From the NCBI GenBank assembly GCA_004298345.1, contig SCTV01000075.1, positions 1-27,005 on the forward strand: DNA of 27,005 nucleotides. Reading direction: 5' to 3'. Positions 15,684-27,005 of this stretch are shown here, one piece after another (positions within the stretch are counted from its first letter, which is position 1; every line of letters starts with the position of its first letter). Source of the stretch: Patescibacteria group bacterium. GTDB taxonomy: Bacteria > Patescibacteriota > Minisyncoccia > Phycocordibacterales > PALSA-1337. The notes beneath the pieces are model-generated. The model saw nothing but the letters and a program-made list of their open reading frames with translations, was not told the DNA's origin and made no database searches. Position numbers and translations under genes: made by a program.

Positions 15684-15756
15684 GCCACCTTAGCTCAGTT
15701 GGTAGAGCACCCGTTTTGTAAACGGGATCGCGTCAGTTCGACTCTGACAGGTGGCT
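15684..15756 (+). tRNA. tRNA-Thr (anticodon TGT), CCA not encoded
   Basis: Acceptor GCCACCT/AGGTGGC; D arm GCTC-AGTTGGTA-GAGC; anticodon arm CCCGT-TTTGTAA-ACGGG; T arm GTCAG-TTCGACT-CTGAC; discriminator T. Confidence 0.96.
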
Positions 15757-23135: not shown

Positions 23136-23164
23136 TTGACAAAAAATACGAAAGGGTGTATAAT
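23136..23164 (+). promoter_or_regulatory. Perfect consensus sigma70 promoter TTGACA-N17-TATAAT
   Basis: TTGACA at 23136-23141 and TATAAT at 23159-23164; ATG follows at 23174. Confidence 0.85.
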
Positions 23165-23173
23165 AGAAGGGTA

Positions 23174-25024
23174 ATGAAAAATACATCAATTTTCCACAAC
23201 TTTATAGTAAACCTTATATCTGGTAAAAAGTCCGTATTTGCTAGCTATTTTATGCTTTTTGGCCTTATTTTGACCGCATCTCCCATCTCTGCTCACGCTG
23301 AGTTTCTTGACTATGTCGACCCATTTGGCATCTTTCATAGTACTAGTAAAGGCCCTCTAGATTATGGTCTTGATATCATCGACCCATTCTCAGTATTGCA
23401 TGGCCAGGATCCTCGATATGAGACCCGGATTCAACAGACAACCCCAACTCTCGATGCGACATGTTATGCCAATCCAACCTCTGCCTCTACTGGTCAGACG
23501 GTGTATTGGAACGCGTCAGCTTTTGGTGGAAATGGTAACTATAGTTACTCATGGAGTGGTACCGACGGTCTTTCTGGAAACTCAAATACCATTTCTCGAT
23601 CATACTCATCTCCTGGTGCAAAGACCGCTTCAGTGACCGTTACTTCGGGTGGTCAGACGGTAACTCGTGCTTGTGGTAATGGTGTTGCTATTTCTGATCA
23701 GGGTTATCAGTCTCCTACGGGAACTACTACTATTATCTATCAACCATACCCATATCCGTATCCTCAATACCCGACATATCCAACCTACAACTACGGCCCA
23801 ACCGGTAGTGCTCTCGATGCATCTTGTTATGTAAACCCAACCTCTGCTGGCGTTGGTGATACTGTGTATTGGAATGCTTCGGCTTCTGGCGGTACGGGTA
23901 ACTATAGTTATTACTGGACAGGTACCGACGGTCTCGGTGGTCAGAGCAACAATATTACCAAATCATACTACGCTCCTGGAGATAAATTTGCTTCAGTGAC
24001 CGTTACTTCAGGTAGCCAGACTATTACTCGACAGTGTGCAAACAGCACCACTATCTATGGTGGTACCGGATATTCAAATAACTATCCATATAACTATTAT
24101 GGAAATAATTATTACAACAACTACCCGACTAATAATTACGGCCAGAATTATTATACAACTGATACTTCTCTAGAAGTCTCATGTGCTCCCAACACAGCAG
24201 TCGCAGGTATCAACCAACTAATCACCTGGACATCTCATGTATATGGCGGAAATGGAAACTATCAGTATTTCTGGACAGGTACCGACAATCTTACCAGTGT
24301 GCAGAGTACCGCTTCTAAATCCTATTCAACTTCAGGTACCAAATCAGGTCTCTTGACTGTGACTTCTGGTGGTCAAACTATCACTCGACAGTGTACTTCT
24401 GTTGTGCAAGTAGGTGATCAAACAGGAGGAGCTGTTGTCTCGGGCGGTCTCCGAGCATCGTGTTATGCCGATGCTGATTCTATCGCTCCAGGCCAGACGG
24501 TTACTTGGTCAGCACTTGCGGCGGGTGGTAACGGCAACTACAGTTATTCATGGACAGGTAGTGACGCACTCTATGGTTCAGGCCCTTCGGTATCAAAGGC
24601 GTATAGCGGTACTGGTTCTAAATATGCTACTGTTACTGTCACTTCTGATGGTCAAACTATCTCGGCTCCGTGTGTGAATACTATTGCAGTCGCACGAACT
24701 TCGACTGTGGCAACAAACACTGGTACTAAGACAGTGGCAAAAAATAATACCGGTCTTCTCAGTGCGGCATTCTTTGGAATCGGAAATTTCCCACTTATCC
24801 TGTTCCTTATCCTTCTTATCCTTATCTTGATCGGTCTCATTATCTACCTTCTTTATTACAGAGATCGTGAGGATGAAAGGAATGATCGCGAGTCGGTCGT
24901 TATTACCAAAAAAGATGAAAGTGTAGAAAAGCATACTGTGCTTGTTGATAATAGAAGCGATGTGGGGAATGGAAATCAGTATAACGGCAACGGCTATCAT
25001 AACGGAAACGGACAGAATCACTAA
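23174..25024 (+). CDS. Surface protein with four PKD/Ig-like repeats, Tyr/Asn/Pro-rich linkers and a C-terminal TM anchor
   Basis: Signal peptide, then four ~80-aa repeats L.ASC..P....GQTV.W.A...GGNGNYSY.W.GTD.L......SKSY...G.K.A.VTVTSGGQT.TR.C at about 23450, 23813, 24170 and 24449. TM is LILFLILLILILIGLIIYLLYY. Confidence 0.88.
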   Translation: MKNTSIFHNFIVNLISGKKSVFASYFMLFGLILTASPISAHAEFLDYVDPFGIFHSTSKGPLDYGLDIIDPFSVLHGQDPRYETRIQQTTPTLDATCYANPTSASTGQTVYWNASAFGGNGNYSYSWSGTDGLSGNSNTISRSYSSPGAKTASVTVTSGGQTVTRACGNGVAISDQGYQSPTGTTTIIYQPYPYPYPQYPTYPTYNYGPTGSALDASCYVNPTSAGVGDTVYWNASASGGTGNYSYYWTGTDGLGGQSNNITKSYYAPGDKFASVTVTSGSQTITRQCANSTTIYGGTGYSNNYPYNYYGNNYYNNYPTNNYGQNYYTTDTSLEVSCAPNTAVAGINQLITWTSHVYGGNGNYQYFWTGTDNLTSVQSTASKSYSTSGTKSGLLTVTSGGQTITRQCTSVVQVGDQTGGAVVSGGLRASCYADADSIAPGQTVTWSALAAGGNGNYSYSWTGSDALYGSGPSVSKAYSGTGSKYATVTVTSDGQTISAPCVNTIAVARTSTVATNTGTKTVAKNNTGLLSAAFFGIGNFPLILFLILLILILIGLIIYLLYYRDREDERNDRESVVITKKDESVEKHTVLVDNRSDVGNGNQYNGNGYHNGNGQNH

Positions 25025-25085: not shown

Positions 25086-26333
25086 CTATTTTTTCTCCCT
25101 GATCTCTTTATTCAATTTTTCCAACACTTCTTCGGCACTCATCTGGCCAAGGTTGCCACTGTCTCGACTTTCGAGAGTAACTTTTTGAGCAGCAATGTCT
25201 TTGTCACCAATGATGATGAAGTAAGGAATCTTTTCTACTTTTGCAGCACGGACTTTTTTGCCAAAACCTTCATTTCCAAGTGAGAGCTCGCAGCGAATCT
25301 GCGCTTCACGGAGCATTGTGTATACCTTTTTTGCCTCTGCCTGGTGTTGCTCATCTATTGGAATAATTTTTACCTGTACCGGAGAAAGCCAGAGAGGGAA
25401 GGCGCCCATATATTTTTCAATAAGAAAAGCAATGATACGTTCGATCGCACCGACCGATGAGCGGTGTACCACTCGAGCGAGCTCTTCTTTGCCGGCTTCA
25501 TTTATGTAAGTCAGATTAAATCGGCCAGGCATACAGAAGTCGTACTGGACGGTAAAGGCGGTGTCCTCTTTGCCATTAGCATTTTTCATCTGAATATCTA
25601 TCTTTGGGCCATAAAATGCCGCTTCATCTTTTGCTTCAGTAAACTTACTTCCTCGCTTTTTCAACAATGCACGCAAGAGCCCCTCGCTTTTTTCCCATGC
25701 AGCATCATCTTTGTGGTATTTTTCAGTGTTGGTGATATCACCGAGGGAAAGTCTGTACCAGTAGTCAGTATCTTTTTTGAGACCCATAGTTTCGGTCACA
25801 AATTCGATGAGGTCGAGTGCCTTACCGATTTCTTCTGTAGCTTGCTCATCATCTTTACAGATAATATGTGCATCTGAAAGACAAAATGTACGAACACGCT
25901 GAAGACCCATGAGCTCTCCAGATTGCTCATATCGATAGAGCCGTGCAAGCTCGGCAATACGTACCGGTAGTTCTTTGTACGTATGTGGTTTGCGGAGATA
26001 GAGCTCGAAATGATGGGGACAGGTCATCGGACGGAGCATAAATTCCTCATCATCGATTTTGATCGGCGCATACATTGAATCCTGATAATGTGGATAGTGA
26101 CCAGACTTACGGTAGAGATCAAGCTTGGCGATCTCTGGTGTGTAGACGTGTTTGTAGTCGCGCCTAGTTTCCTCGTCCACGATAAAGCGTTCGAGCTCAC
26201 GGCGAATCACCGAGCCTTTTTCGGTCCAGAGGGGAAGACCTTTGCCGACTGATGTTGAAAAAGCAAAGAGGTCGAGCTCTTTTCCGAGTTTTTTGTGATC
26301 GCGCTCTTCGGGAGCGGGTGTTGGTGTTGTCAT
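25086..26333 (-). CDS. thrS: Threonyl-tRNA synthetase, short form lacking N-terminal TGS/editing domains (415 aa)
   Basis: It begins directly at RDHKKLGKELDLF. Motifs LYRKSGHY, LRPMTCPHH, ELARLYRYEQSGELMGLQRVRTF, DAHI, AFYGPKIDI, TVQYDF, VHRSSVGAIER and FPLWLSPVQV, then the anticodon-binding domain. Confidence 0.95.
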   Translation of the reverse strand: MTTPTPAPEERDHKKLGKELDLFAFSTSVGKGLPLWTEKGSVIRRELERFIVDEETRRDYKHVYTPEIAKLDLYRKSGHYPHYQDSMYAPIKIDDEEFMLRPMTCPHHFELYLRKPHTYKELPVRIAELARLYRYEQSGELMGLQRVRTFCLSDAHIICKDDEQATEEIGKALDLIEFVTETMGLKKDTDYWYRLSLGDITNTEKYHKDDAAWEKSEGLLRALLKKRGSKFTEAKDEAAFYGPKIDIQMKNANGKEDTAFTVQYDFCMPGRFNLTYINEAGKEELARVVHRSSVGAIERIIAFLIEKYMGAFPLWLSPVQVKIIPIDEQHQAEAKKVYTMLREAQIRCELSLGNEGFGKKVRAAKVEKIPYFIIIGDKDIAAQKVTLESRDSGNLGQMSAEEVLEKLNKEIREKK

Positions 26334-26363
26334 GTTAATAAAATTATAAATAATAACGAAACT

Positions 26364-26521
26364 GCCCGAGCGATTCAGACAAAATATGTCTGAGTCGCTC
26401 GGGCGGGGAGATTCCTCGTGGTTCCACCGAGCTTTCCGTTTGAGACGGACACTTCATTACTTCAGATTAGGGTTGTTACCTCGCTTGCGCGTTTGCGGGT
26501 GGTAGCCGCAACAACTTCTGT
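26364..26521 (-). promoter_or_regulatory. T-box riboswitch-like leader of thrS
   Basis: On the minus strand: Stem III TCCGT-CTCAA-ACGGA, then AA-GCTCGG-TGGAACC-ACG (T-box). GCTCGG can pair with the downstream CCGAGC, which also forms part of an 18-bp terminator-like hairpin (26364-26404). Confidence 0.85.
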
Positions 26522-26527
26522 ATTTAT

Positions 26528-26556
26528 AGTATATGCCCGATTTGGGCGTAGGTCAA
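26528..26556 (-). promoter_or_regulatory. Promoter for the thrS leader, TTGACC-N17-TATACT
   Basis: The + strand has GGTCAA at 26551-26556 and AGTATA at 26528-26533. Confidence 0.75.
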
Positions 26557-26648
26557 ATGATTGACTTTTTTGGTTCACAGATGTATCGTTTTCTTGGACT
26601 TTGAAATCCCTGCTATTGTGGCGGGGTATCTTTGTGAAAGGGAACGTT

Positions 26649-27005
26649 ATGCACTTTGGCTTAGTAATCGTCCTTTGGGGCACATCTGGTCTTGCCGGAA
26701 CCCTGAATGTCGTGACAGGTGGCTCAAGAATGGTTTCTGACATATTTGCCTTCTATAATCTGGCGGGCATGATAGGGACTGTGGGGATTTTTCTCTGGAG
26801 GAAGAAGCATGGTCCAATCAGTGTGCGATCAAATCTCGTTACCGTGAAGATTATCATGGCAGGTTTGATCGGCCAAAACTTTGGACTAGGTGTCATCATG
26901 CTCTATTGTTTCTTCACCTCTCCTTTGGGGAATCTTCCGGTTTTCCCACTGATAGTAACTTTCCTGATGGCGGCGGTTTCTATCCTCGGAAGGTGTCTGG
27001 CTGTG
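26649..27005 (+). CDS. EamA/DMT-like membrane transporter, 3'-truncated by window edge (absent from the ORF track)
   Basis: The frame is open from 26565 to the window end. It translates MHFGLVIVLWGTSGLAG...DIFAFYNLAGMIGTVGIFLWRKK...IIMAGLIGQNFGLGVIML...LPVFPLIVTFLMAAVSILG. The start could also be TTG 26601 or GTG 26634. Confidence 0.7.
   Translation, partial: MHFGLVIVLWGTSGLAGTLNVVTGGSRMVSDIFAFYNLAGMIGTVGIFLWRKKHGPISVRSNLVTVKIIMAGLIGQNFGLGVIMLYCFFTSPLGNLPVFPLIVTFLMAAVSILGRCLAV

Follow-up and report, generated by a model that had tools for sequence, protein, structure and literature searches.

We propose that the leader upstream of thrS in this genome is a T-box that senses tRNA-Thr and controls thrS by transcription attenuation. 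We regard this reading as very likely, although tRNA binding, the geometry of the loop–loop contact, the transcription start site and termination in vivo are inferred. The sequence features, their conservation and covariation, the exclusive association with thrS, the identity of the codon, the match to the discriminator base and the universal presence of a terminator are shown. The 3' half of the leader is a textbook T-box discriminator, with Stem III, GGUGGAACC, a bulged antiterminator, a competing 17-bp terminator and a U-rich tail. A bolder reading, towards which we lean by a modest margin, is that the element belongs to a distinct and undescribed structural class, one that is transcriptional and decodes through an anticodon-arm-like hairpin on a four-way junction, without a platform, K-turn, S-turn or IIA/B element.

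The window referred to throughout is the whole 27,005-nt stretch of DNA that was analysed. Its host is a member of the CPR/Patescibacteria, with a genome of 708 kb (91 contigs, 93% complete, 45% GC) that contains a single copy of thrS. The nearest relatives of the ThrS protein (89–91% identity) belong to MAGs that carry the labels Ca. Taylorbacteria, Parcubacteria and Paceibacteria. The DNA is contained in a groundwater metagenome, for which only DNA sequencing runs were listed and no RNA run. As thrS sits on the minus strand, the whole element is read on that strand (Table 1).

Layout of the thrS leader

Table 1. Coordinates of thrS and of the features of its leader in the window
Feature	Position	Strand	Description
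thrS, gene regulated by the leader in our reading	25086-26333	minus	415-aa ThrRS; class II core and anticodon-binding domain only
Sigma-70-like promoter	26528-26556	minus	TTGACC 26556-26551, 17-nt spacer, TATACT 26533-26528; 10/12 matches by consensus scanner
Decoding module, four-way junction, 58 nt	26463-26520	minus	Closing helix P0 and conserved joining strands
Helix P0	CAGA 26520-26517 with UCUG 26466-26463	minus	Compensatory changes at all 4 pairs, 34 leaders
Joining strands of decoding module	(A/G)(A/G)UUG; CUAA 26470-26467	minus	Conserved
Ultrashort Stem I	26493-26511	minus	6-bp hairpin UUGCGG/CCGCAA with 7-nt loop CUACCAC; all 6 pairs covary, 96.5% of cells paired
Specifier ACC, then A	26503-26501	minus	Within the 7-nt terminal loop of Stem I
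P2, variable-length hairpin	26482-26491	minus	Here CGC-GCAA-GCG; all 3 modelled pairs covary
P3, mini-hairpin	26471-26480	minus	Here GGU-AACA-ACC; both modelled pairs covary; fold by RNAfold
Linker ending AAGUG	26450-26462	minus	Conserved purine-A-G motif of T-box discriminators; aligned to AGuG of the Rfam T-box consensus; kept in relatives
Stem III hairpin	26435-26449	minus	UCCGU-CUCAA-ACGGA; all 4 modelled pairs covary
T-box sequence and antiterminator	26397-26432	minus	Aligns with Rfam T-box positions 190-219; about -11 kcal/mol
Antiterminator helix A1	26432-26427 with 26402-26397	minus	GCUCGG/CCGAGC; 4 of 6 pairs covary, other 2 invariant; 97.5% of cells paired
7-nt bulge UGGAACC	26426-26420	minus	Holds UGGA, found in 33/34 leaders
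Inner helix A2	26419-26403	minus	Covaries; first pair here A/C instead of G-C
String GGUGGAACCACG	26428-26417	minus	Sequence check
Terminator hairpin	26364-26404	minus	17 bp and one C/A mismatch; RNAfold -32 kcal/mol; 5' strand reuses the A2 and A1 3' strands
U-rich tail AGUUUCGUUAUUAUUU	26348-26363	minus	Imperfect, interrupted U-tract; accepted by scanner, 5 T in 8

Transcription is predicted to start at about 26521, a position that is inferred and not mapped, which would give a leader of about 188 nt to the ATG at 26333. In the thrS upstream regions of all relatives compared, a -10-like hexamer lies 7–12 nt before the first helix, where the conserved module begins, and in the window it lies 7 nt upstream of P0. 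With the -10 box directly before P0, a Stem I could not be fitted in upstream, which makes the ACC hairpin the sole candidate for the specifier, as far as can be inferred from sequence alone. A TATAAT located 9 nt before the ATG is not kept in the sister genome and is most likely a chance occurrence in AT-rich sequence. No Thr-rich small ORF was found in the leader, and attenuation by a leader peptide was rejected for this reason.

The decoding module has the same order in the thrS upstream regions of relatives: P0, (R)RUUG, a hairpin of 5–6 bp with the 7-nt loop YYACCAM, AU, P2, A, P3, CUAA and the 3' strand of P0. P2 ranges from 3 bp to more than 15 bp and has no conserved internal loop among the relatives compared, so that there is no S-turn in it, and P3 is a helix of 2–4 bp with variable tetraloops (for example GC-GAAA-GC, CC-UUCG-GG and GUC-AAAA-GAC). 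When the leader was truncated before the 3' strand of the terminator and folded with RNAfold without guidance, P0, Stem I, P2, P3, Stem III and the bulged antiterminator were all obtained. Two other arrangements of the module were considered and set aside. A helix GUUGUU/AACAAC around two hairpins is incompatible with Stem I and has no support in other lineages, the covarying helices being P0 (CAGA/UCUG) and P3, and an alternative register of P0 (AGAUU/AAUCU) is broken by two leaders, L061 and L010, which show compensatory changes in the register chosen here.

Thirty leaders have ACC as the loop triplet and two have ACG, both of which are Thr codons, and the next base is A in 32/32 alignable thrS leaders. 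The loop has the format C-U-NNN-A-A and resembles an anticodon loop (Y32-U33-NNN-R37-A38). It is possible that it pairs with the anticodon loop of the tRNA in a loop–loop contact; this is inferred, as there are no binding data. Complexes between tRNAs with complementary anticodons are known to be stable, and the loop–loop idea is consistent with them.

The tRNA-Thr genes of the genome have the anticodons GGU, CGU and UGU, and all carry U73. We infer, again without binding data, that the cognate of the ACC specifier is tRNA-Thr(GGU), the gene for which (contig C67:840-915) has U73 and an encoded CCA. UGGA in the bulge is complementary to UCCA, and U73 is present in all tRNA-Thr genes of this genome and of three to four further genomes (including G477–G479); a single leader with UGGG (L069) would meet U73 as a G.U wobble. 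Within the thrS family the covariation of UGGN with N73 is weak and uninformative, as UGGN hardly varies and U73 is found everywhere.

In 34/34 leaders the antiterminator is overlapped by a terminator-type hairpin with a U-rich tail after it; the hairpin has energies of -22 to -40 kcal/mol and a sequence that is wholly different between lineages. The tail in relatives is typically GAUUUUAUUUU. Since every member of the family has a strong overlapping hairpin and a U-rich tail, the interrupted U-tract of the window copy is likely a local deviation of a terminator-type platform. The string UCGGUGGAACCACG matches the T-box consensus AGGGUGGNACCGCG at 11/14 positions, and the first two mismatched positions fall in the covarying helix A1.

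Several of these features had been described in a first-pass annotation made from the letters of the window without database searches. The promoter, Stem III, the T-box string, the antiterminator, the hairpin, its tail and the TATAAT that it listed were all confirmed, and the positions that it gave were correct. Its 18-bp hairpin was confirmed only in part, as RNAfold returns the 17 bp and one mismatch listed in Table 1. It had matched UGGA to the U discriminator of the tRNA-Thr gene at 15684-15756; this gene does have U73, but it encodes tRNA-Thr(UGU), whereas the cognate isoacceptor is the GGU one. The uncertainty that it had expressed about the output mechanism, on account of the imperfect U-tract and the TATAAT, is largely resolved in favour of termination, given a terminator in every leader and a TATAAT that is not conserved. 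The range that it covered included the 5' decoding module (26520-26463), which it left undescribed, and it is the specifier and its decoding domain that constitute the main novelty.

Searches, spread and covariation

With Rfam at gathering thresholds, only the tRNA-Thr(UGU) gene was found in the window. With permissive filters the T-box model RF00230 matched the leader with 22.4 bits (E 0.005), against a gathering cut-off of 93 bits, which was not reached. The alignment covers Stem III, the T-box sequence and the antiterminator, and 85 positions of the Stem I model are deleted. The same model aligned the ACC hairpin to Stem II and P2 to Stem IIA, an assignment that we rejected, since a Stem I would not fit upstream of the ACC hairpin and its loop acts as specifier.

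A BLAST-level DNA search recognised the leader in only 4–5 related genomes, and a covariance model was needed. One model (R1) was built from 17 leaders with an explicit structure, and another (R2) was built without the genus of the window. R2 gave the window leader 101 bits (E 3.3e-21), and the next best match in the 27-kb window was 10.5 bits. The match of the leader is thus far beyond chance, as shown by this score from a model that had left out its genus and by the folding energy of the whole leader relative to shuffled sequence (z = -5.65).

Among the 80 closest thrS loci, taken one per species, R1 found the element in the 14 in which it had already been recognised and not in the other 66, and its distribution is therefore patchy. 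A search of whole genomes with R1 gave matches at E <=0.01 in 31 of the 151 genomes of the order, including 18 new matches of >=37 bits. Outside the order, three more thrS leaders were found in 150 genomes sampled across the class and four in one other family of the phylum. All 25 of these new matches (18 in the order and 7 outside it, from about 450 Patescibacteria genomes) lie directly upstream of thrS and on the same strand. The element is retained in the sister genome (92% identity), where Stem I shows compensatory changes. Weak model matches of 73–75 nt were considered as tRNA genes and this was rejected; they are T-boxes of the aspS type and one reduced thrS leader.

Variation in architecture was seen within the family. 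Stem III is missing in a sub-lineage of thrS T-boxes (L038, L039, L047, L067, L074 and L115), in which the element measures about 110–119 nt to the end of the antiterminator. The leaders L130 and L129 have a single hairpin in place of the junction; P0 is long in them, and below the ACC hairpin there is an internal loop. Another leader, L132 (G113:C1:207380-207454), seems to begin at Stem III, with a TTGACA-N17-TATAGT promoter directly upstream, and would therefore have no decoding module. The thrS leaders of a distant Patescibacteria family (L149–L152, family f209) share Stem III and the T-box sequence with its antiterminator (GAGUGGAACCGCG), and their 5' part differs.

Covariation was assessed in a 34-sequence model alignment, in which compensatory changes were found at 25/30 base pairs, with pairs changed on both sides in each of the seven helices (P0, Stem I, P2, P3, Stem III, A1 and A2). 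Standard pairs were formed in 92.1% of cells, compared with 72.0% when the 3' partners were shuffled and 33–44% when they were slid. The covariation score was 0.582, compared with 0.228 for shuffled partners (0/500 shuffles reached the observed value) and 0.05–0.12 for slid partners. The alignment was fitted to the structure of the model, which favours that structure, and the sequences are related. A plain MAFFT alignment gives the same compensatory patterns, such as GCUCGG/CCGAGC, GUUGGG/CCCGAC and ACUAGG/CCUAGU in A1.

These results bear on the central claim of the first-pass annotation, that a T-box-type sensor of tRNA-Thr precedes thrS in a CPR genome. The claim stands as a reading, supported by the searches, the covariation and the relatives of ThrS, with tRNA sensing itself inferred. 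Two of the checks that it had listed have been run. Infernal with the Rfam T-box model gave the sub-threshold score reported above, and the collection of thrS leaders across Patescibacteria gave the compensatory pairs just described. It had also stated that a lack of conservation or covariation of the antiterminator in related genomes would refute its claim; the antiterminator is conserved and covaries.

Proposed mechanism and its alternatives

The mechanism that we propose is as follows. Transcription would begin at about 26521, and the first 58 nt would fold into the four-way junction, the first arm of which, shaped like an anticodon arm, would display ACC and then A in its 7-nt loop. The anticodon loop of tRNA-Thr(GGU) would pair with this specifier loop. 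An uncharged tRNA would use its free 3' end, UCCA, to pair with UGGA in the bulge; the weak antiterminator would be locked and RNA polymerase would read into thrS. If the tRNA is charged or absent, the stronger terminator would form by reusing the 3' strands of the antiterminator, and transcription would stop in the U-rich tail. The predicted energies (about -32 kcal/mol for the terminator, about -11 kcal/mol for the antiterminator) imply that termination is the default and that readthrough needs the antiterminator to be stabilised. The points that count against this reading are the interrupted U-tract, the A/C first pair of A2, the Rfam score of 22.4 against 93 bits and the absence of the known tRNA-holding parts.

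One alternative is a T-box with a translational output, or one acting on RNA stability, in which the large hairpin would be a sequestrator or a processing site. The interrupted U-tract of the window copy (AGUUUCGUUAUUAUUU) is in keeping with this, and all previously described T-boxes with a terminal-loop specifier (ultrashort Stem I) are translational (bioRxiv 10.1101/2023.02.28.530422). However, about 30 nt separate the end of the hairpin from the ATG, and the hairpin contains neither a Shine-Dalgarno-like sequence nor the start codon. The GC-rich hairpin followed by a U-rich tail in 34/34 relatives is the signature of an intrinsic terminator, for which the scanner accepts the tail of the window. 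We consider a translational or stability output very unlikely. Another possibility is that the leader is an operator bound by ThrRS, with autoregulation by a protein that recognises a mimic of its tRNA. Autoregulation of this kind has a precedent in E. coli thrS. The hairpin does have the format of an anticodon arm, with a 6-bp stem and a 7-nt loop Y-U-NNN-A-A, and the gene is thrS. Against this, the loop displays a codon (ACC/ACG) and not a Thr anticodon (GGU, CGU or UGU), and mimicry leaves unexplained the UGGA bulge, the antiterminator/terminator pair and the parallel aspS element with GAC and UGGC that is described below; there is very little to recommend an operator as the explanation.

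It could also be argued that the element is decaying or constitutive, such that the terminator merely damps thrS expression and the T-box-like parts are relics that no longer sense tRNA in this organism. The weakened A2 (A/C) and imperfect U-tract of the window copy would fit such decay, as would the absence of the element from 66 of the 80 closest thrS loci and the loss of the decoding module from the relative L132. Yet the window copy is among the best-scoring members of the family (101 bits with the leave-out model) and every helix in it is intact. Four distant lineages (L013, L122, L125 and L126) have the CCACG variant as well, which is therefore tolerated, and the element persists in the sister genome, where the changes in Stem I are compensatory. 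Decay thus appears highly improbable, and regulation of thrS by tRNA-dependent attenuation remains our preferred reading.

Relation to known T-boxes, the aspS leaders and the surrounding locus

The thrS element resembles the class I transcriptional T-boxes (RF00230; B. subtilis thrS, tyrS and glyQS) in its UGGN bulge pairing with NCCA, its competition between antiterminator and terminator, its Stem III, ahead of which stands a purine-A-G motif, a specifier that corresponds to the synthetase under control and has a purine after it, and output by attenuation. Like glyQS, it lacks Stem II and IIA/B. Unlike class I T-boxes, it has no long Stem I, K-turn, internal specifier loop with S-turn, AG bulge or distal-loop elbow platform, and its codon is displayed by the 7-nt terminal loop of a hairpin on a four-way junction. 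It also resembles the ultrashort-Stem-I ileS T-boxes of Actinobacteria (Sherwood et al. 2015; Mycobacterium ileS structures), which have a terminal-loop specifier on a short helix and no elbow platform. However, these sense tRNA-Ile, sequester the Shine-Dalgarno sequence and depend on a Stem II S-turn and a IIA/B pseudoknot, whereas the thrS element has an intrinsic terminator and precedes thrS. No S-turn, IIA/B pseudoknot, F-box or K-turn could be recognised in the thrS element, and among the relatives compared there was no conserved GAA/AGUA internal loop and no complementarity between a loop and a linker. The element fits neither the Rfam class I architecture nor the Actinobacterial ultrashort class, and we regard it as a functional analogue of the class I thrS T-boxes.

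The platform has been considered essential for transcriptional T-boxes: these generally need a long Stem I whose double-T-loop platform binds the tRNA elbow, and Stem I's of intermediate or ultrashort length are ascribed to translational T-boxes (PMC7583486). The ultrashort terminal-loop class is described as consisting entirely of ileS leaders that are translational and sense tRNA-Ile, and most T-boxes have a Stem II S-turn and a IIA/B pseudoknot in addition (bioRxiv 10.1101/2023.02.28.530422; PMC11297988). TBDB ran its short-Stem-I model only on Actinobacteria (PMC7778990). No report linking T-boxes to CPR/Patescibacteria or describing the present architecture was found in the literature searched, many subscription journals being outside its scope.

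In the current view, transcriptional T-boxes need the long Stem I platform for quick capture of the tRNA, and short variants suit slower translational control, with the help of Stem II and IIA/B. A conserved T-box of the terminator type without these parts challenges this view and would define a natural minimal tRNA sensor. If the bolder reading is true, contact between the codon and anticodon loops together with capture of the NCCA end would be enough for co-transcriptional sensing of tRNA charging, and the element would be among the smallest natural T-boxes, at 110–130 nt up to the antiterminator. In our main reading, genome-reduced CPR bacteria, which depend on amino acids from outside, have retained RNA sensors of tRNA charging in front of at least two synthetase genes, thrS and aspS. 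Standard annotation with Rfam or TBDB misses such elements, and riboregulation in Patescibacteria is therefore under-counted. A T-box of this size is an attractive scaffold for engineered tRNA-responsive switches.

The aspS element is a second compact T-box in the same genome (C29:55-253, minus strand, locus L001), with a counterpart in the sister genome (L144:1490-1692). The gene downstream of it is truncated by the end of the contig and was identified through the sister genome (G002), in which it encodes a 463-aa AspRS. A closing helix, AAGCC/GGCUU, encloses a hairpin with GAC-A in its terminal loop. The element has a strong terminator, and its UGGC bulge matches G73 of the tRNA-Asp of the same genome. 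The UGGN/N73 rule thus holds for two different elements, those of thrS and aspS, in one genome. The aspS element scores 39 bits with Rfam against the cut-off of 93, and aspS leaders overall score 29–54 bits. Other genomes of the order carry an aspS/asnS-type T-box family (L135–L143) with a terminator and a 4-bp Stem I whose loop is CUGACA; in most of these genomes it also has a K-turn base, a Stem II with an S-turn (GAAGAAA...AGUAGA), and IIA/B with its F-box. In one of its members, L140, AAC (an Asn codon) is combined with UGGU. We infer that this family comprises ultrashort-Stem-I T-boxes with a transcriptional output, outside the described class that is restricted to ileS and to translation.

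The thrS element is like these aspS leaders (C29:55-253 and L135–L143) in that they occur in the same organisms, carry a terminal-loop codon on a very short Stem I and a terminator-type platform, and fall below the Rfam cut-off. The two differ in that the aspS leaders mostly keep the K-turn base, the S-turn Stem II, the IIA/B element with its F-box and a UGGC bulge, whereas the thrS family has the P0/P2/P3 junction instead. The Rfam model does detect the K-turn, S-turn, IIA/B and F-box motifs in aspS leaders, and their absence from the thrS element is therefore not a blind spot of the method.

The locus offers some further observations. The ThrRS of this genus is without the tRNA_SAD editing domain, which related genomes (G039, G015 and G007 among them) retain. 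Neither a second thrS paralogue nor a free-standing editing domain was found in the 93%-complete genome, in which the sole tRNA_SAD domain is that of AlaRS. As this is the only such domain and thrS is present in a single copy, the editing of Ser-tRNA-Thr may be missing in this genus, an inference made from sequence alone. A divergent promoter-like site (TTGACT-N17-TATCGT, window 26561-26589, plus strand) stands back to back with the thrS promoter, and downstream of it is a small hydrophobic ORF (26601-27005, plus strand) that runs off the end of the window. On the other side of thrS, a 622-aa ORF (window 23156-25024, plus strand) has a signal-like N-terminus, a C-terminal membrane anchor, Tyr/Asn-rich linkers and four copies of a repeat that is about 90 aa long (motif NGNYSYSWTGTDGL...VTVTSGGQT), and we infer that it likely encodes a surface protein.
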